In this document: positions 9,589-18,492 of the stretch, piece after piece
How positions within the stretch are numbered: the stretch's first letter is position 1
How the letters are laid out: every line of letters begins with the position of its first letter
Origin: Armatimonadota bacterium
GTDB lineage: Bacteria > Armatimonadota > SYMT01
Length of the DNA stretch: 64,000 bases
Assembly (NCBI GenBank): GCA_041690135.1
Contig: JAWLHY010000008.1
Location: forward strand, 160,001 to 224,000
Reading direction: 5' to 3'
Translations under genes and position numbers: made by a program
Notes under the pieces: generated by a model
The model's input: only the letters and a program-made list of their open reading frames with translations
What the model was told of the DNA's origin: nothing
The model's database searches: none

Positions 9589-10173
9589 TTGAACGAGGAA
9601 GAAGTGCAGGAATCGATGGACGAACCGGGTGCCGCCGGATCGGCAGATGCCGGGCCACAAGATTCCGAGCCACAAGACGCCGGGCCGCAGGGCGAAGCGA
9701 GCACCGGGAGCGCGCTGTTCGAAGAGATCCAGCAGCCGCCCTGGCCGGCAATGGCCCTGGGGCTGGGTGGCACGGCTACCGGGGCGATTGCCGCCGCGCG
9801 CGCGCTGAGCATGTTCGCGCGTTTCGGCGTGGCGGCCCTGGCGGTCGGCGGTCTCGGGGTAGTCTTGACGGAATTCATGTTTCCCATGCGCACCACGCTC
9901 CTGCCGGAGGAGTTGCAGGTCCGTTTCGGCCGGCGTACCCGTTTCCGGATCCCCCTCAAGAACGTGGTTCGTGCTTACGCTCGCACTTACCAGCCGCTGG
10001 CGGAGTACGGAGGGTGGGGCATCCGCGGGGTGGGAGGGAATCGCGCCTTCAACATGCGCGGCAACGAAGGCGTGCAACTGGAGTTGCGTAGTGGGCAAAA
10101 GGTCCTGATCGGCTCCGAGAAACCCGAGGAACTCGTCAGGGCCATCCGCAAGGCCACAGGCTGTTCTTCCTGA
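9589..10173 (+). CDS. Hypothetical membrane protein (2 TM plus a soluble domain with an EYGGWGIR motif; DUF6141/bPH-like)
   Basis: TTG start with AGGAGG RBS; two hydrophobic segments; C-terminal YGGWGIR...GNEGVQLEL..G.KVLIGS..PEEL pattern. Confidence 0.8.
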   Translation: MNEEEVQESMDEPGAAGSADAGPQDSEPQDAGPQGEASTGSALFEEIQQPPWPAMALGLGGTATGAIAAARALSMFARFGVAALAVGGLGVVLTEFMFPMRTTLLPEELQVRFGRRTRFRIPLKNVVRAYARTYQPLAEYGGWGIRGVGGNRAFNMRGNEGVQLELRSGQKVLIGSEKPEELVRAIRKATGCSS

Positions 10174-10177
10174 TGGG

Positions 10178-11092
10178 TCACTTGCCACCTGGGGTGGGGT
10201 CGAGGTGGTTCTCCCGGAGGAACCGGACGAACGTCTCGCTCGCGACCGAGAGATAACCGTGCGCTCGCCAGACGAGGTAGAACTCCCGGGTCACGTCCAG
10301 GCCTTCCACGGGAAGCACCCGGAGGAGGCCGAGACGTTCCTCATCCTTTACCGCCCACTCGCTAAGCACGGCGAGGCTGTCCGTCTGGCGGACGGCCATC
10401 TTCACCGCTTCGGTGCTGCCGAGCTCCAGAAACACCTGGAGCTCGTCGGCCGGAATACCTGCCTGCGAGAGGGATTGTTCCAGCGTGGACCGGGTGCCGG
10501 ACCCGTGCTCCCGCATCACGATCGGCTGCTGGAGGAGATCCTCGCCGGTGAGCGTGGATTGCGCGGCTAGTGGATGCCCCGGTCGGACCACCGCCACCAG
10601 GCGTTCCTGCAGGATCGGTTCGAACTTCAACCGCTCGTCCCGGACCTTCTCCCCAACCATTCCCAGCTCGAACCGCCCTTCCCGAAGCCCCGCGCGCACC
10701 TCCTGGCTATTGGAGACCGCGAGGTGGATATCCACACCGGGGCGCTCCTGCTTGAACCGGGCCAGGGCCGCCGGGAGGATGTAATGCCCGGGCACGGTGC
10801 TTGCTCCAACTTCCAGGGATCCCACGGCCAGTCCCTGGAGGTGGTCCATGGCCTGCTCGGCCCGCTCGCTGACCTCCAGGATTTGCAGCGCGTAAGGGTG
10901 GAAAACTCTTCCCGCCTGCGTGAGCGAGATGCCCTGTGCCGAGCGCTCGAACAACCGGGTGCGGAGCGTCTTCTCTAGCGCCTGGATCTGGGCACTGATC
11001 GTGGGCTGGGTCAGGTGGAGACGCTCGGCCGCGCGTGAAAAGCTTCCTTCCGAAACGATGGTACAGAACGACTTGACGTGTTGGAAGTTCAT
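10178..11092 (-). CDS. LysR-family regulator, CysL/YeiE-like (resembles the selenium-metabolism-associated subgroup)
   Basis: SFSRAAERLHLTQPTISAQIQALE HTH; GASTVPGHYILP, REHGSGTR and ELGSTEAVK are typical of CysL-like LTTRs. Confidence 0.92.
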   Translation of the reverse strand: MNFQHVKSFCTIVSEGSFSRAAERLHLTQPTISAQIQALEKTLRTRLFERSAQGISLTQAGRVFHPYALQILEVSERAEQAMDHLQGLAVGSLEVGASTVPGHYILPAALARFKQERPGVDIHLAVSNSQEVRAGLREGRFELGMVGEKVRDERLKFEPILQERLVAVVRPGHPLAAQSTLTGEDLLQQPIVMREHGSGTRSTLEQSLSQAGIPADELQVFLELGSTEAVKMAVRQTDSLAVLSEWAVKDEERLGLLRVLPVEGLDVTREFYLVWRAHGYLSVASETFVRFLRENHLDPTPGGK

Positions 11093-11099
11093 GCCAGAT

Positions 11100-11747
11100 T
11101 CAGGCCCGGATCAGGTGGATCCAGTCGGTGAACAGGAACCAGAGCCGGCCGATGAAGAGGGACATGCGCGCCATCACGGTCGAGCCGAACATGGCCCCGA
11201 ACGCGATCATCATGAGCCACCGGCCGAGCGAGGCGGCGCGGGCGACGGGTCGGGCGCGGTGCTCGAAGGAGAAGAAGAAATACAGGAAGACGCACAGCAG
11301 CGTCACCATGAAGATGAGGTTGTCGAACTGGATGAACGGCGGCGCGAACCCGGCCGTGAAGATCGGCCGGAAGGAATCCGCGATCTGCCGCATGTAGGTT
11401 CCGGCCCAAGTGCGGAAGATCAGCCCCGCTTCGAAGCCCATCATTGTCATCATCACCACGCGGCTCATCCAGTTCAGGCGCCGGCTGTAGATGGTGTAAT
11501 ACATCAGCCCCGGCACCAGCGCCATGGCCCACGGCCATTGGCCCGCGTCGCGCATGGGTTGGTACCACTTGGGGAACAGGATCTGCGCCCAGATGGCATA
11601 GAGACCATAACCAGTGGCCAGTCCAAGGAACGCGTGCTCGGCGACCCGGTAGATCGGGTTTTCGCGGTAAAGAATGGAGTAGAGCGCCAGAGTGGCCAGG
11701 GCGCCCATCCAGATCATGATCCCCTGAGGCGAAGTAAGCGCTTCCAT
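11100..11747 (-). CDS. Conserved hypothetical integral membrane protein (about 6 TM), DUF6754-cluster subunit
   Basis: YSILYRENPIYRVAEHAFLG...YFFFS...GRWLMMIAFGAMFGSTVMARMS; start overlaps the upstream stop (TGATG). Confidence 0.85.
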   Translation of the reverse strand: MEALTSPQGIMIWMGALATLALYSILYRENPIYRVAEHAFLGLATGYGLYAIWAQILFPKWYQPMRDAGQWPWAMALVPGLMYYTIYSRRLNWMSRVVMMTMMGFEAGLIFRTWAGTYMRQIADSFRPIFTAGFAPPFIQFDNLIFMVTLLCVFLYFFFSFEHRARPVARAASLGRWLMMIAFGAMFGSTVMARMSLFIGRLWFLFTDWIHLIRA

Positions 11748-12640
11748 CAGGCAGTCCTCCGGCGAGCGAACCAGCCGCGGATGATCGCCAGGTTTCCGAA
11801 GATGATGAGTACGAACAGGTAGAGGTGCGCGAACGACTGACCGGCCATCATCCGCGAGGCGCGGCCCCGGAAATCCAGAAGGTCCTCATATTCCGCGGCG
11901 CCCCGCATTCCGGTAAGCATCCCCGTTAGCTGCCGGGTGGCCAGGTAGGGATACTGCTCGGGTGCCATCACGGCGGTGCAGGCCAGGCTGATATCCACTC
12001 TCTCGGAACCGATCAGCGCGATCCACGCCGGAGTGGTGGCGGAAGCGGTTATGTCGATCAGCATGCTAAAAGACCTGGGCAGGGTGGTCACTCCGGCGAA
12101 CAGGGGGTACTGTCGGAGTTGCCGGCCCTTCCAGTCCGCCTGCAGAGCGGCGATCGGGTCCCGCACCAGCGATCGGATCCAGGGAGTGTTCCGCACCTTG
12201 TAACCGGTGTTGACGTAATCGCGCCCGTAGATCGGGTAAGCGTCGGCCGGCCGTTCCGGACCGAACTCCTGCAGAATCGCCACTTCCAGCGCGTTCTGAG
12301 TCAACTGGGGAGCGTTCGGGGACCCGACGGACATCACCACGAACTTCAGGCGTCGCCGCATCAGGTGCCGGAAGATGGCAATCGTCTGGGGCTCATTCTC
12401 CGCGTACGTGCCCGCATCCCAGTTGGAGGACACCAGCACCAGTTGATCCTGGGGTAGTGCTTCGATCGAGCGGTGGAAGTTGATGACCGGCGGTGTGGCG
12501 TAAATCGGCAGCCCAAGGCCGGCGACCAGCGGCAAAATCGTGAAGACGAGTAGCCCCAGGTAGATGTAGCGGCGGTCAATCCGGGAGATGAACTGCTCCC
12601 AGTTCTGCATCATTCCGGGGCGGGAGTTGGTGAGCGCCAT
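11747..12640 (-). CDS. Conserved hypothetical membrane protein (TM, alpha/beta domain, TM), DUF6754-cluster subunit
   Basis: IDRRYIY then TM; YGRDYVNTGY, TAVMAPEQYPY and GMRGAAEYE; GQS then C-terminal TM; GGAGG RBS. Confidence 0.85.
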   Translation of the reverse strand: MALTNSRPGMMQNWEQFISRIDRRYIYLGLLVFTILPLVAGLGLPIYATPPVINFHRSIEALPQDQLVLVSSNWDAGTYAENEPQTIAIFRHLMRRRLKFVVMSVGSPNAPQLTQNALEVAILQEFGPERPADAYPIYGRDYVNTGYKVRNTPWIRSLVRDPIAALQADWKGRQLRQYPLFAGVTTLPRSFSMLIDITASATTPAWIALIGSERVDISLACTAVMAPEQYPYLATRQLTGMLTGMRGAAEYEDLLDFRGRASRMMAGQSFAHLYLFVLIIFGNLAIIRGWFARRRTA

Positions 12641-12644
12641 TTCG

Positions 12645-13592
12645 CTAGACCTCCTGCCCGAAGTAAGTGCCGCGCTCCAGGCTCAGCCAGATGCGCAGGG
12701 ACATGGCGAGCGCCCCCAGCCCCAGCCCGAAATCGATGGCGCGCTGCACAGAACCGTTGATGACGTTGAGCACCCAGTAGCTGAAGTTCTCGATCCGCAA
12801 CCCGCTGACGACCCCCTCCTGTGGGATCCAGTTGGTCAGGGCCATCCCGAGGGGCACCTGTCCGGCCATCAGAATAATGGCGGTGATCATCATCAGGGCC
12901 GCTTCGGCGTTCCGGATACGGAAGGCACGGTAAGCGGCGGAAACGATGTAGAAGGCGAGGATAGAGAACATCGTCGCTTCCAGGTTCACGTAGAGGCCGC
13001 GGAACAGGAAGGTGTAGAGGTCGCTCGCATAGAGCGGGTTGAACGTGTCCGGAATCGGCGGAAGGCCCAACTGTGCCCGGAGTGAGGGGTCGTCGATCGT
13101 GTTGCGATCCAGGATGAATGGTGGCGGTAGGTTGGCCAGGGTCAACGCGCCCGGTTCGGGGCCGAACCACTGGTACCAGTCGCGCCAGAAGGCGGCCACC
13201 GCCATCCCAATAAACGCGGCGAAGAAAACGACGCTGTACCCCCAGTTCGCCCGCGTGCGGCGGATGTTGTTGAAGTGGATGTGGACGAGGTTATAGATCC
13301 CCAACAGAAAGGTAAAGGCCGCCACGATCTGCAACACGTTCCCGATAATGTCGGTCCCCGTGGTGATGGGGTTGGGCTCACCTGCGGGAGTCTCCGGCCA
13401 AAAGTACTCCAGAGCGTACACCGCGCCGGCGATGAACGTGAGGGCGACGATCATCCAGCGTTTGCCCTGGCGTGGCACGAAATGGATGACCGCCAGCACC
13501 GCGAGGCAGGCGAGGATGGAGAGCACGGCTGCCGTCCACATCGCGCCGTCGTTCCGGGCAAACCAGTCGAAATTGAAGAGAGATCGAGGCAT
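12645..13592 (-). CDS. Conserved hypothetical polytopic membrane protein, DUF6754-cluster subunit
   Basis: About 7-8 hydrophobic segments; LEATMFSILAFYIVSAAYRAFRIR...GQVPLG...QRAIDFG...SLRIWLSLER. Confidence 0.85.
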   Translation of the reverse strand: MPRSLFNFDWFARNDGAMWTAAVLSILACLAVLAVIHFVPRQGKRWMIVALTFIAGAVYALEYFWPETPAGEPNPITTGTDIIGNVLQIVAAFTFLLGIYNLVHIHFNNIRRTRANWGYSVVFFAAFIGMAVAAFWRDWYQWFGPEPGALTLANLPPPFILDRNTIDDPSLRAQLGLPPIPDTFNPLYASDLYTFLFRGLYVNLEATMFSILAFYIVSAAYRAFRIRNAEAALMMITAIILMAGQVPLGMALTNWIPQEGVVSGLRIENFSYWVLNVINGSVQRAIDFGLGLGALAMSLRIWLSLERGTYFGQEV

Positions 13593-13601
13593 CGCTTGTC
13601 T

Positions 13602-14474
13602 CTAGCTGCTTCCCTGCTGAATCCACTGTTCGAGCTGCTGCGGCAAGGAGAGCTGACCGGCAGGCAATTTGTTGGGGGAGACCTGGATGTGCTGGTCGTC
13701 GTTGATGACCGGCTGCCCCGTCACGCCGTGCCACACGGAGAAGAAGAGCGCCATGGCGACGATGATGCCGACGAGGATCATCTTACAGTAGTCCTGGCCC
13801 ACCAAGCTCCCAAGGAGCACCGGCTCACGGGTGAGATAAGCCGTGCCCGCGTAATACTCGTCGCCGATAATCGTGTAGTCGCAAGCCGCGATAAAGAACG
13901 GAATCTGCGTGATGCTGGGCGTCCCGGCCACCTGAATGGCCCCCACCTGGTTTCCGGTCTCCGCCAGGATCAGGGCTTCGGCGGCGAACACTCCGAACAT
14001 GAAGTTCGAGGCTGCCCGCTCTCGGGTGATTACCCCCACCATCGCCGAGGCGTAGGCGAACTGCCGATCGGAGAGGAACCGCACATCGTCCACCTGGTAG
14101 CTCTCCGGACGCCCCTCCACGGTGTAGGCCTCGCGGACCGCTTCATCCGTCACCGCGTAGAGGGTCGGGTCGGCCATCGTGATGATCACGCGGTTGCCGA
14201 ACCGGATCGCCATGCGGGTGACATGGATCGCAATGGCCAGCGCTTGCAGTGTGACGATATCCAGAGCCCCCAGCCCGAGAGAGAACGTAATGGGACGGCC
14301 CATTTCCGTGGCGCGGCCTACCGCTTCATCCACGGCGGTAAGGCCGGGAATGCGGCGGATGAAGAGTTGCCGGCGCCGCGCGACCAGAATGCGCGACAGG
14401 ATGATCGCCGAAAAGACAATCAGCAGCACGCGCGGCAGCAACACCGGGATCCAGTAATCCAGGGCTTCTTTCAT
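13602..14474 (-). CDS. DUF6754-like membrane protein
   Basis: IRRIPGLTAVDEAVGRATEMGRP, FLSDRQFAYA, AEALILAETG, QIPFFIAACDYTIIGDEYYA..AYL.REP..LGSLVGQD. Confidence 0.85.
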   Translation of the reverse strand: MKEALDYWIPVLLPRVLLIVFSAIILSRILVARRRQLFIRRIPGLTAVDEAVGRATEMGRPITFSLGLGALDIVTLQALAIAIHVTRMAIRFGNRVIITMADPTLYAVTDEAVREAYTVEGRPESYQVDDVRFLSDRQFAYASAMVGVITRERAASNFMFGVFAAEALILAETGNQVGAIQVAGTPSITQIPFFIAACDYTIIGDEYYAGTAYLTREPVLLGSLVGQDYCKMILVGIIVAMALFFSVWHGVTGQPVINDDQHIQVSPNKLPAGQLSLPQQLEQWIQQGSS

Positions 14475-14483
14475 GCTCTTTAC

Positions 14484-14915
14484 TTACCCGCTTTCCGGGT
14501 GGGTCTCGTCTCGTCTTCCTGGTTGTTGTTCCGGAAGTGGAGCGGTCCCTTCTTCGTCGGGGGTTGGGAGGCTTTCCATTCCTGCTGCAGGCTCCGCGGA
14601 ATCGCTATGCTCCGGGTCCTCAAGTGACTGCGCCTGCGATTCGGCGGCCAACTCCTCGATGCGGTTCACCAGGCGCTCGACGTTGCGCGAATCCTCGAGT
14701 AACTTCGAGAGCTTCAGCACGTTGTCCGTCCCCGCGAGCGCCCCGAGGAATGGGGTCGCCACAATCAGCGCCTGGCTCCCCAGAAAAGATAGGGGGCGGT
14801 GCATCTCCAGCATAAAGACGGCGGGCACCTCCATGCGCCGGCGCACCACCTCATGAGCCGCCCGCTCGATCCACGCGTCGCGCTCTTCGTCAGTCAGCGT
14901 TACTTCGAACGGCAT
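14484..14915 (-). CDS. Conserved hypothetical protein
   Basis: VVRRRMEVPAVFMLEMHRPLSFLGSQALIVATPFL...LLEDSRNVERLVNRIEEL; ends 9 bp before the DUF6754-like gene. Confidence 0.8.
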   Translation of the reverse strand: MPFEVTLTDEERDAWIERAAHEVVRRRMEVPAVFMLEMHRPLSFLGSQALIVATPFLGALAGTDNVLKLSKLLEDSRNVERLVNRIEELAAESQAQSLEDPEHSDSAEPAAGMESLPTPDEEGTAPLPEQQPGRRDETHPESG

Positions 14916-15366
14916 CCCGAAACCTGCGCACGGCGCTCAGGACTTCCTCCTGCGAGCCGTGCCCTTCACCAAAACGGAGAAACACGCCACGGAACGGTTC
15001 CAGGCGGGTGCGCACGCCCAGCGGCGAAAGCTTGACCCCGTCTTCCAGGAGATAGGCTTTCTTCACCTCGGACCAAGCAATCCTGCGCCAGTTGTGCAGG
15101 TTGCGCATTTCCGCGCCTTCCTCGTCCAACCGATACCGGATGGGAAGCAAGAACTCGCTGGTAGCGCCCAGCAGCGCCAGCACGCAGAATCCCGCATAGA
15201 GCCAGTTGCGAAACAGGAAAAAGCAGAGACCGGCGGAAAGGAGCGCGGCTCCCACTACCACCGCGGCACGCGCGGGCTGGGTGCGTGCCAGGTGGACCTG
15301 CCATTCCAGCGCATCGATCCCTTCGCTGGAGTTGCCATCGACGGATGTGAGGGTGTCGGAGACCAT
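14890..15366 (-). CDS. Conserved hypothetical membrane protein (2 TM plus beta-rich domain); start uncertain (15366, 15381 or 15450)
   Basis: LEWQVHLAR..P, two TMs, EFLLPIRYRLDEEG...W.EVKK...GVKLSPL...RLEPFRGVFLRF; overlaps the next gene. Confidence 0.75.
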   Translation of the reverse strand: MVSDTLTSVDGNSSEGIDALEWQVHLARTQPARAAVVVGAALLSAGLCFFLFRNWLYAGFCVLALLGATSEFLLPIRYRLDEEGAEMRNLHNWRRIAWSEVKKAYLLEDGVKLSPLGVRTRLEPFRGVFLRFGEGHGSQEEVLSAVRRFRDAVRSNAD

Positions 15367-15469
15367 GGAGAGGAGCAGCATTTCCACGGGCGGGAGACGG
15401 GTGGGGCGACGTTCCCCGCAGGTCGACGCCGGTGGGTAGAGGCCCTTCAAGTCCGCGGGACCGTCGTCA

Positions 15470-15509
15470 CTATAGAAACCTTCTATAGGCTCCGGTTGCG
15501 CAGATTATA
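15470..15509 (-). promoter_or_regulatory. -10 box (TATAAT) and LysR-type palindromic operator of the DUF6754 operon
   Basis: Minus-strand TATAAT at 15509-15504; perfect inverted repeat CTATAGAA-acc-TTCTATAG at 15470-15488 (ATA-N9-TAT, T-N11-A). Confidence 0.7.
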
Positions 15510-17024: not shown

Positions 17025-17897
17025 TTAGAGGGGTCGCTGTTCCCACGGCATGGGAATGGTGGGTCCCTGGGTGTGGCGGTCGCCGCGGGGGTCGAGTGAG
17101 CGATCGCGGAAGTAGTCCACGAAGGCGACGAGTTGCTTCACCGCCTCCTGGTAGGCTTCCCGGCCTTTCTCCACGCTCGCCTTCTCCGCATCGCCAATCA
17201 CGCCCGTTTCAGAGTAGCTGCTGGTCCACGAGATGAGCTGCGTGGCGCTTTTGCCGAACAGGTCATTCCAGATGAACGGGTTCGGCTCGCGGTTGTAGCT
17301 GGCGAACTCCGTCCGGATCAGGTCCTCCCGCACATTTGCATGGTCCAGATACAGGTAGAGGGAGGTCTCCAACTCGCAGGCATGGGAGCATCCGCCCGGG
17401 AACGCGCTCTCCCGCCACCGCGGCATGAAGCTCTTATCCACCGTAAGCAGGCTCCACCAGGCCGCCAACACACATTCGCCATCCGTTTCCAGGTTGGTCC
17501 GGCGGGCGACCAGATCCAGGTTCGGCATGTTGGAGCCGTGGCCGTTGAGCAACAAGATCTTCTTGAACCCGTGGTAGGCCAGCGACTTCGTGATGTCCAG
17601 CACGCTGCGGATGAACGTCTCCCAGTCCTGATTCAGCGTGCCCGGAAAGTCCATCACATGCCCCACGTAGCCGTAGTGGACGGTCGGCAGCACCAGAATT
17701 CGGTCCGGCGCCACCATTCCGGCCCCGCGCGCGATCTCCGTCGGGCAAACGATATCGACGTCGAGCGGCAAATGGGGGCCGTGCTGTTCGACCGACCCCA
17801 CCGGGAGGATGCAGACCTTCCGCATCTCTACTGCGTCGTTGATCTCAGGCCAGGTCAGCTTTTCGTAGCGGTACTCAGTGGCGGCACGGCTGGACAT
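17025..17897 (-). CDS. Creatininase family amidohydrolase
   Basis: PVGSVEQHGPHLPLDVD, FPGT, NGHGSN and HACELETS; ATG at 17897 with GAGGAG RBS. Confidence 0.92.
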   Translation of the reverse strand: MSSRAATEYRYEKLTWPEINDAVEMRKVCILPVGSVEQHGPHLPLDVDIVCPTEIARGAGMVAPDRILVLPTVHYGYVGHVMDFPGTLNQDWETFIRSVLDITKSLAYHGFKKILLLNGHGSNMPNLDLVARRTNLETDGECVLAAWWSLLTVDKSFMPRWRESAFPGGCSHACELETSLYLYLDHANVREDLIRTEFASYNREPNPFIWNDLFGKSATQLISWTSSYSETGVIGDAEKASVEKGREAYQEAVKQLVAFVDYFRDRSLDPRGDRHTQGPTIPMPWEQRPL

Positions 17898-17963
17898 GGG
17901 GTTGGCTCCTCGTAGCTGGTCGTGGACGTGGGATGGGCGTTCAAGCGGCGCTCGTGCAAGACA

Positions 17964-17991
17964 GCGTAATGCGTAATCCGTAATGCGTAAG
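17964..17991. repeat. Heptamer tandem repeat (GCGTAAT-like) x4
   Basis: GCGTAAT GCGTAAT CCGTAAT GCGTAAG. Confidence 0.85.
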
Positions 17992-18090
17992 GAACGTGTC
18001 AGAGTGGGTGCTTGGAATTGGCAGGTGCCTCGGACCAAGTTCCGGTATGCCCACCCGTTCGTTCGAAACGGGTGCTCTTCCTGTCTGGAG

Positions 18091-18492
18091 TTAGAGGGCC
18101 CGGCCCACCACGACTCCCAGCCACACTGCCACGAGCCCGGCGGCAAGGCTTCCGAATGCATTGGCCAGCGCCCGGGGCCATGCGCCCAGCATCAACAGCT
18201 GCAGATTGTCGTATTCGAAGGTGGAAAACGTGGTGTAAGCGCCTAGGAAGCCCACGGCCAGCAACAGGCGTAGGGTGGGCCCGGCATTCAGTTCTCCGCG
18301 CTCCGCCAGGAACTCCAGCAGCACCCCCAGCAGGAATGACCCCGTGACGTTAATAGCGAATGTCGCCCACGGGAACTGTGCCCCCCACCGGCCGGTAATC
18401 CACAGCCCCAGCCAGTAGCGCGCATTCGCTCCCAGAAATCCGCCCAGGCCCACGAGGCACGTTTTGGCTATCCATTCCCACTTCGGATCCAA
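18091..18492 (-). CDS. crcB: Fluoride channel CrcB/Fluc
   Basis: GGFLGANARY, FPWATFAINVTGSFLLG and GFLGAYTTFSTF. Confidence 0.95.
   Translation of the reverse strand: MDPKWEWIAKTCLVGLGGFLGANARYWLGLWITGRWGAQFPWATFAINVTGSFLLGVLLEFLAERGELNAGPTLRLLLAVGFLGAYTTFSTFEYDNLQLLMLGAWPRALANAFGSLAAGLVAVWLGVVVGRAL

Follow-up and report, generated by a model that had tools for sequence, protein, structure and literature searches.

The DUF6754 gene cluster analysed here lies on the minus strand of a 64,000-nucleotide (nt) stretch (the window; positions 160,001 to 224,000 of contig JAWLHY010000008.1, assembly GCA_041690135.1) from an Armatimonadota bacterium. The window belongs to contig C8 of a 9.1-Mb genome, G000 (genomes are labelled G and fetched loci are labelled L). 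The conserved unit in this organism consists of six clustered genes (g1–g6) and two genes located elsewhere in the genome, not of the seven clustered genes described in an earlier note. The two additional genes encode a GlmL/MutL-family protein (the GlmL-like ATPase) and a protein designated p372; they are adjacent to each other on contig C10 (G000:C10) and not on the operon contig, so that all members of the eight-protein set are present. The tentative reading adopted here, to which we give somewhat less than an even chance, is that g1–g6 constitute the membrane part of a conserved eight-protein machine that acts as an ATP-driven modular translocator, probably in uptake. The wider proposal is that interchangeable four-protein translocation modules are powered by an actin-fold GlmL-like ATPase and not by a P-loop ATPase, which would make this a new class of primary-active membrane machine. 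This proposal is doubtful; if it is true, the absence of this transporter superfamily from model organisms would explain why it has been overlooked.

Gene content and spread of the conserved set

In the window, the ORF list contains seven co-oriented open reading frames (ORFs), g1–g7, at the positions given in the earlier note and with the tight spacing described there. The successive junctions from g1 to g7 are an overlap of 26 nt, three gaps (9, 9, and 4 nt), an overlap of 1 nt, and a final gap of 7 nt. The genes are listed below.

14890-15450, minus strand: g1, in which a putative cytoplasmic PH-like domain comes after a transmembrane (TM) hairpin; the start may be at 15450, 15381, or 15366
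14484-14915, minus strand: g2, a small protein that has an acidic tail and a conserved hydrophobic hairpin (P-A-x-L-F-L-E-x-H-K-P-L)
13602-14474, minus strand: g3 (subunit A), the DUF6754 protein, with a TM helix, a predicted cytoplasmic Rossmann-like domain, and a second TM helix
12645-13592, minus strand: g4 (subunit B), a polytopic protein with the motif AAYRAFRxR and an outward loop insertion of ~66 amino acids (aa) in this lineage
11747-12640, minus strand: g5 (subunit A'), with a TM helix, a predicted extracytoplasmic Rossmann-like domain, and a second TM helix
11100-11747, minus strand: g6 (subunit C), a polytopic protein with the motifs YRENPxYR..EH and FGAxFGxTVMAR
10178-11092, minus strand: g7, a LysR-type regulator, a lineage-specific addition at the 3' end of the operon

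In hydropathy profiles, g1 shows a TM hairpin and g2 a single hydrophobic hairpin, g3 and g5 each have a TM segment at either end, and g4 and g6 are polytopic; the charge distribution suggests that the soluble domain of g3 is cytoplasmic and that of g5 is located outside. A motif scan detected no Walker A, CxxCH, or CxxC motif in the seven operon proteins, in line with the earlier statement that they lack Walker A, heme, and Fe-S motifs. The g3 product matches Pfam DUF6754 (PF20539) with an E of 9.9e-87 and a score of 290.7 bits (cut-off 27), and the match spans almost all of the model (positions 15–245 of 257); this is, however, a catalogue entry without function and covers only one of the eight proteins. 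No match to g1, g2, g4, g5, or g6 reached the Pfam or NCBIfam threshold (for g4, the best Pfam match had an E of 0.0012). Genes g1–g6 are nevertheless real, since orthologues of all six are found in the same order in many genomes.

For comparison, a panel of 41 Armatimonadota genomes and 14 control genomes was used, and 20 Armatimonadota loci were compared with the window by tblastn and blastp. In addition, a scan of a genome collection yielded at least 580 loci encoding DUF6754 relatives, 80 of which were kept; the phyla represented in these 80 loci include Poribacteria, Cloacimonadota, WOR-3, Edwardsbacteria, Eisenbacteria, and Planctomycetota. The resulting 100 loci were not de-duplicated, with at least four contigs apparently included twice, and were searched with hidden Markov models (HMMs) made from the Armatimonadota orthologues.

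Of the 87 loci that extend 2.7 kb or more beyond g3, 84 show the order g3-g4-g5-g6; they come from several phyla, including Armatimonadota, Poribacteria, Cloacimonadota, and Planctomycetota. The HMM and neighbourhood checks thus confirm the earlier assumption that a four-gene core recurs as a unit. Among the 20 Armatimonadota loci, 19 contain the four genes in the same order and 19 contain g2. DUF6754 was found in 35 of the 41 Armatimonadota genomes and in none of the 14 control genomes, and most Armatimonadota genomes contain one copy. The system is phylum-wide in Armatimonadota and is also present in several other poorly studied phyla.

Among the 90 loci having at least 1 kb upstream, 61 show the order g1-g2-g3 and another seven have g2-g3 only, and in two further loci the order is scrambled by over-long ORF calls. 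The remaining 20 comprise L021 (Armatimonadota) and 19 loci from the collection scan, mostly titled as other phyla or unclassified. The longest g1 ORF opens with a TTG at 15450, and ATG codons at 15381 and 15366 (the latter used in the earlier note) are equally possible; the start is uncertain because conservation in 19 orthologues begins only near residue 48. The PH-like domain is suggested by matches to bPH_6 that are below threshold in g1 itself (E 0.087; 13.3 bits against a cut-off of 22) and in 7 of the 19 orthologues (best E 0.00099).

The actin-fold ATPase and its partner p372

Two extra families, GlmL/MutL and p372, recur inside or beside the cluster in nine loci of several phyla, and clustering of the flanking ORFs identified no other gene conserved across lineages. 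The GlmL-like protein (~600 aa) matches PF13941 from end to end, with E values of ~1e-126 in L092 and L024 and 2.6e-128 in G000. The second protein, p372, is 372 aa long in G000 (~375 aa in the family) and has no family match above threshold. All eight genes are contiguous in five loci (L024, L029, L031, L107, and L108), and in L092 and L111 the order is g2, the GlmL-like gene, p372, and two tandem four-gene modules.

The co-occurrence of these genes is also evident genome by genome. Of the 41 Armatimonadota genomes, 35, 36, and 34 contain DUF6754, the MutL family, and p372, respectively, and the presence of the GlmL-like ATPase tracks that of the core in 40 of them; G010, G012, G016, G025, and G038 lack all three families alike. 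No p372 match was obtained in G002 and G004 (80 and 90% complete, respectively). The GlmL-like gene was also found in all five core-bearing genomes of other phyla and was over the cut-off in none of the 14 control genomes. In three of these five genomes, where the GlmL-like gene is unlinked to the core, g2 or the g1-g2 pair is located directly upstream of it. In Armatimonadota, g2 adjoins g3, whereas in L092, L107, L111, L126, L127, and L129 it is directly upstream of the GlmL-like gene, and in L127, which is from another phylum, the g1-g2 pair occupies this position. Genes g1 and g2 thus accompany the module in the window and the ATPase elsewhere, which ties the two halves of the system together.

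Both proteins are highly conserved. Thirteen GlmL-like proteins share 57–63% identity and have 186 invariant positions out of 594, including both phosphate-binding motifs, and p372 shows 47–55% identity across phyla. GlmL is an accessory protein of coenzyme-B12-dependent glutamate mutase and belongs to the hydantoinase/oxoprolinase branch of the ASKHA proteins. The ATPase of the present system resembles it in its end-to-end match to PF13941 and in retaining both phosphate-binding motifs, but it is ~140 residues longer and is paired with p372 and membrane proteins, not with a mutase; no mutase gene was found in the loci with a linked GlmL-like gene. It also falls far below the cut-offs of the related equivalogs, with 222.7 and 241 bits for the L092 and L024 orthologues against 475 for the GlmL equivalog (NF040745) and 215.7–227.2 bits against 600 for the ornithine Or-4 equivalog.

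These results bear directly on the interpretation given in the earlier note, according to which the seven genes encode a self-contained, ATP-independent transporter or channel that has its own LysR regulator and carries an amino acid or an oxyanion of sulfur or selenium. The tight packing of the genes is consistent with this interpretation, as are the absence of Walker A and other nucleotide motifs from the seven proteins, a g7 score above the cut-off for a selenium-associated regulator family, and the presence in the genome of a selD gene with an in-frame TGA (both described below). However, a GlmL/MutL-family ASKHA ATPase and p372 are physically linked to the cluster in other genomes and co-occur with it, and the term 'ATP-independent' is not supported for the system. 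Taken as a whole, that interpretation is very improbable.

The N-terminal domain of p372 gives some indication of its fold. It matches RnfC_N in all 10 members examined and NQRA_N in four of the 10, but all of these matches are weak (best E 2.8e-05) and below threshold (for RnfC_N, 20.4 bits in G000 against a cut-off of 25.6); they are consistent with a barrel-sandwich hybrid domain similar to that of RnfC and NqrA. An ESM Atlas search with p372 returned only its own unnamed clusters. These matches raise the possibility of an ion-translocating energy converter of the RNF/NQR type, in which p372 would act as an RnfC/NqrA-like peripheral subunit and ATP hydrolysis would replace redox chemistry. 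The layout of the system loosely parallels that of NqrA-F, which consists of peripheral, TM-anchored cytoplasmic, TM-anchored outward, and polytopic subunits. By contrast, no protein of the set contains a CxxC, CxxCH, or CxxCxxC motif, Fe-S and flavin motifs are absent, and the membrane subunits are unrelated to those of Rnf and Nqr, with no Pfam match to them. The barrel-sandwich fold is moreover widespread, and duplicated, diverging modules and ligand-binding inserts (see below) would be unexpected of an ion pump. An RNF/NQR-like converter is very improbable.

The A-B-A'-C module and its possible function

The four module subunits differ in their degree of conservation. Among orthologues, identity to the window protein is 40–66% for g3, 28–58% for g4, 23–52% for g5, and 32–64% for g6. 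In four loci (L092, L095, L105, and L111), modules are duplicated beside one energiser set, and paralogous modules within one genome share 56–67% identity in A, 49–58% in B, 41–49% in A', and 39–58% in C. Subunit A is the most conserved subunit, including between paralogous modules. Several relatives carry additional domains. Ten long variants include an Fn3 domain on g3 (L021), a PD40 β-propeller in the g4 loop (L019), and a CBM-like insert in g6 (L017), and four g3 proteins among them have large N-terminal extensions without a family. Of 10 long g6 homologues, four contain PQQ_2/BamB-like propellers, one (P0009) contains a CBM-like insert, and five contain nothing recognisable. The g6 family is large: a search of 1.84 billion representatives gave 2,897 clusters at E≤1e-3. 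An ESM Atlas search with g6 gave no usable named match.

Gene content, synteny, co-occurrence, and fold class are established by the data, whereas physical assembly, ATP coupling, transport, its direction, and regulation are inferred. The ATP-driven translocator proposed here may work as follows. The shared set would comprise g1, g2, the GlmL-like actin-fold (ASKHA) ATPase, and p372 with its RnfC_N-like barrel, with g1 and g2 assembling with the ATPase-p372 pair and holding it at the membrane. The conserved cytoplasmic domain of A would receive the ATP-driven movement, and B and C would form the membrane path. A' and the outward loops of B and C would meet the substrate outside, where the Fn3, β-propeller, or CBM-like domains of relatives are predicted to be located. 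One energiser would serve one or several modules, and the substrate would be moved across the cytoplasmic membrane, probably inwards. Translocation, and probably uptake, is favoured because the modules are duplicated and diverging and because outward binding domains are present.

In its working principle, and by analogy only, this arrangement is similar to that of ECF-type and ABC importers: one or more membrane modules, which diverge from each other, draw on a common set of energising proteins, and conservation is highest in the coupling subunit and lowest in the parts that face outwards. It differs from them in its actin-fold energiser and in lacking an ABC ATPase, an EcfT protein, and any S-component family; no Walker A motif was found in nine proteins tested, and no ABC_tran match was found in the operon.

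The same outward domains also fit the main rival explanation, an envelope or biogenesis machine in which the actin-fold ATPase drives the export, insertion, assembly, or turnover of a surface polymer, lipid, or protein, and in which the outward Fn3, propeller, and CBM-like domains would hold a macromolecular client. Fn3, PD40, BamB-like, and CBM-like domains typically bind macromolecules, and the membrane-associated actin-fold proteins FtsA, MreB, and PilM belong to assembly machines and have no known part in transporting solutes. The near-housekeeping conservation of the ATPase and p372 and the single copy in most Armatimonadota genomes point in the same direction. On the other hand, no cell-wall, lipid, or secretion gene is consistently found nearby, and the diversifying duplicated modules are better suited to substrate specialisation. 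We consider an envelope machine unlikely.

Structural models were obtained for g3 and g5. The g3 model (predicted local distance difference test score [pLDDT] 79) consists of a TM helix, an α/β domain, and a TM helix; residues 65–83, flagged as hydrophobic by the scan, are placed by the model in a strand and a helix of the soluble domain. The g5 model (pLDDT 93.3; predicted template modelling score 0.89) has the same plan. In fold searches (VIA-align), the best match of g3 was LarE (Z 8.4; root-mean-square deviation [rmsd] 3.2; 121 aligned residues), tied with phosphoglycerate kinase, SDR, and, at Z 7.5–7.8, USP rows, and that of g5 was SIRT1 (Z 8.8; rmsd 3.7; 148 aligned residues), tied with RecJ/DHH, SDR, and, from Z 8.0 down, RCK rows. 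Both folds are thus generic Rossmann-like folds. No Foldseek match to either model was obtained at E≤0.001. Alignment of profiles with hhalign gave 6% probability (E 0.0063) for g3 against g5, over 68 columns with topologically matching elements, and 0.4% for g4 against g6; these values do not establish shared ancestry for either pair. When the complex of g4, g5, and g6 with g3 as the partner was predicted, the score was non-specific, since a control with a substitute for g5 reached almost the same value, and the prediction carries no weight either way.

It is also conceivable that the complex is a membrane-bound enzyme or sensor, in which the DUF6754 domain would be catalytic or ligand-sensing and no translocation would occur. 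Among 22 sequences, g3 has 31 invariant residues, including C198, D199, and Y200, as well as many acidic residues and glutamines, and its best fold matches include nucleotide-binding HUP/USP-like and SDR-like Rossmann domains, though these are generic. However, no recognisable catalytic motif or family is present, no typical signalling output domain was found, and four membrane subunits with ~15 TM helices and an outward domain are more than an anchor would need. Such an enzyme or sensor is improbable.

Several observations weigh against the translocator that we tentatively favour. In three loci (L025, L041, and L043), g3 is not followed by g4-g6; of the four checked genomes with a split locus, three contain a g6 homologue elsewhere, and in one no g6 was found at all. 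In G009 (2.1 Mb; 93% complete), the GlmL-like gene and p372 are neighbours on contig C24, but no DUF6754 was found; either the module lies in unassembled sequence or the pair can exist without a module. None of the subunits resembles a known transporter, channel, or pump, and the fold matches of A and A' are tied with those of unrelated families. To our knowledge, there is no ASKHA-driven transporter, and the proposed mechanism is therefore without precedent. No conserved flanking metabolic gene provides a clue to the substrate, and a search against Rfam at gathering cut-offs, which covered 37 loci and the full window, detected no riboswitch.

Pfam, NCBIfam, structure-profile, and fold searches found no characterised transporter or enzyme, as the earlier note had anticipated. 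Sequence searches for solved relatives gave nothing significant for the profiles of g3, g4, g5, g6, p372, or the GlmL-like protein, and PADLOC anti-phage models returned no family for the eight proteins at E≤0.01. A full-text literature search, which did not extend to supplementary files, found no paper on DUF6754, PF20539, PF13941, or GlmL combined with ASKHA. Beyond the DUF entry, the generic PF13941, and the LysR families, no curated family, solved structure, or PADLOC model matches the set, and all eight proteins lack both an assigned function and a relative of solved structure. The present analysis adds the recognition that g1 and g2 act as a bridge, a table of co-occurrence in Armatimonadota, the LysR gene and dyad specific to one order, and the rejection of a selenium link for the core. 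If the system is an ATP-driven translocator, it would represent a new energy-coupling principle in membrane transport; if it is an envelope machine, it would represent an unrecognised step in the cell biology of these phyla.

The LysR regulator, promoter region, and neighbouring genes

The g7 product is a full-length LysR protein with HTH_1 (PF00126; E 1.1e-22) and LysR_substrate (PF03466; E 2.1e-52) domains. It exceeds the cut-off of NF040786, the selenium metabolism-associated LysR family, over its full length (285.4 bits against 250) and is the only one of six NF040786 matches in the genome to do so. A LysR gene directly follows g6 in five of the eight genomes of the window's order (G000, G001, G003, G005, and G007; the G001 protein, at 249.3 bits, is just under the cut-off), and g7 orthologues over the cut-off were found only in this order. 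Among the 20 Armatimonadota loci, a LysR gene is attached only in L012 and L013, and none was detected within 1.77 kb after g6 in L032, the closest named relative. The regulator, described previously as the system's own, is thus a local add-on that was recruited to the operon in the window's order only.

The suggestion of a sulfur or selenium signal had no source other than the family name of the regulator, a name that is presumably based on genomic association with selenium-metabolism genes. The g7 gene ends a DUF6754 operon, whereas selD is on contig C1 (G000:C1:1150877-1151803, L117). The latter gene has one in-frame TGA, as do the selD genes of most Armatimonadota relatives searched, which suggests a selenocysteine-containing SelD and selenium use in Armatimonadota. 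In G036 (G036:C287:25634-27648), a LysR gene of the same type (238.7 bits) is located divergently beside selD; this is the usual context for this type of regulator and contrasts with the position of g7 in the window. DUF6754 and selD are discordant in 11 of the 41 genomes (eight with DUF6754 and without selD, and three the reverse). As DUF6754 does not co-vary with selD and g7 is not beside selenium genes, a selenium link for the core was rejected. In view of this discordance and the restriction of the LysR gene to one order, an ATP-independent oxyanion transporter is unlikely.

Two features were identified upstream of g1.

15504-15509, minus strand: a -10-like hexamer, TATAAT, in the divergent intergenic region shared with purB
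15470-15488, minus strand: a perfect 8+8 inverted repeat, CTATAGAA-GGT-TTCTATAG, with a T-N11-A core, located 15 nt after TATAAT

No full promoter was called by a consensus scan because the -35 sequence is poor; in L012, from the same family, TTGACG-N18-TATACT is present at the matching place. The dyad is a candidate LysR operator or a hairpin in the 5' untranslated region. In the proposed scheme, the LysR protein probably acts at this T-N11-A dyad just after the -10 box, a reasonable inference from the sequence that is weakly supported. No other exact copy of the dyad exists in the 9.1-Mb genome, and the one site with two mismatches, on contig C7, was taken as a chance occurrence (by eye, it follows a BCCT-type-like transporter gene and precedes a pirin-like ORF). 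L012 has a similar dyad, ATAG-N7-CTAT, in the equivalent position following its -10 box, and none was found in the other five upstream regions of the order (one of them cut by a contig end) or in six further relatives. Two points argue against regulation at the dyad: it recurs in only this one other genome, and it lies downstream of the -10 box, where activator sites of LysR-type transcriptional regulators are not usually found. The joining of a LysR gene to the operon and the unique promoter dyad nevertheless provide a practical handle, and the effector of the regulator could point to the condition or substrate served.

The operon is flanked by housekeeping genes, with divergent purB upstream, followed by a creatininase-family gene and crcB, and with nusA and ylxR downstream; the base composition across the region is unremarkable. 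Rfam matches in the 37 loci and the window comprised 6S RNA, two tRNAs, and one borderline CRISPR repeat, none of them upstream of the module. The last of these is a single direct-repeat match in the same-family locus L012 (2064-2087; 35.9 bits against 35), ~5 kb upstream of the operon. Convergent with the LysR gene is an ORF (window 9589-10173, plus strand) that appears by eye to contain a hydrophobic stretch and a PH-like C-terminal part; it is faintly similar to g1 (28% over 64 aa, E 0.015) and was not found in the other fetched loci.

The genome contains four creatininase-family genes (PF02633), two of which (window 17025-18161, minus strand, and L114 12775-13809, minus strand) share 75% DNA identity over 866 bp. 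Each of these two genes is located ~1.5 kb upstream of one half of the system, namely g1 (with purB between them) and the GlmL-like gene, and no broader duplication surrounds them. This adjacency was not seen in the seven other genomes of the order, and a 30%-identical homologue near g1 was found only in L059. An ORF of contig C10 (L114 11612-12427, plus strand), lying between the creatininase paralogue and the GlmL-like gene, appears by eye to be ankyrin-repeat-like.

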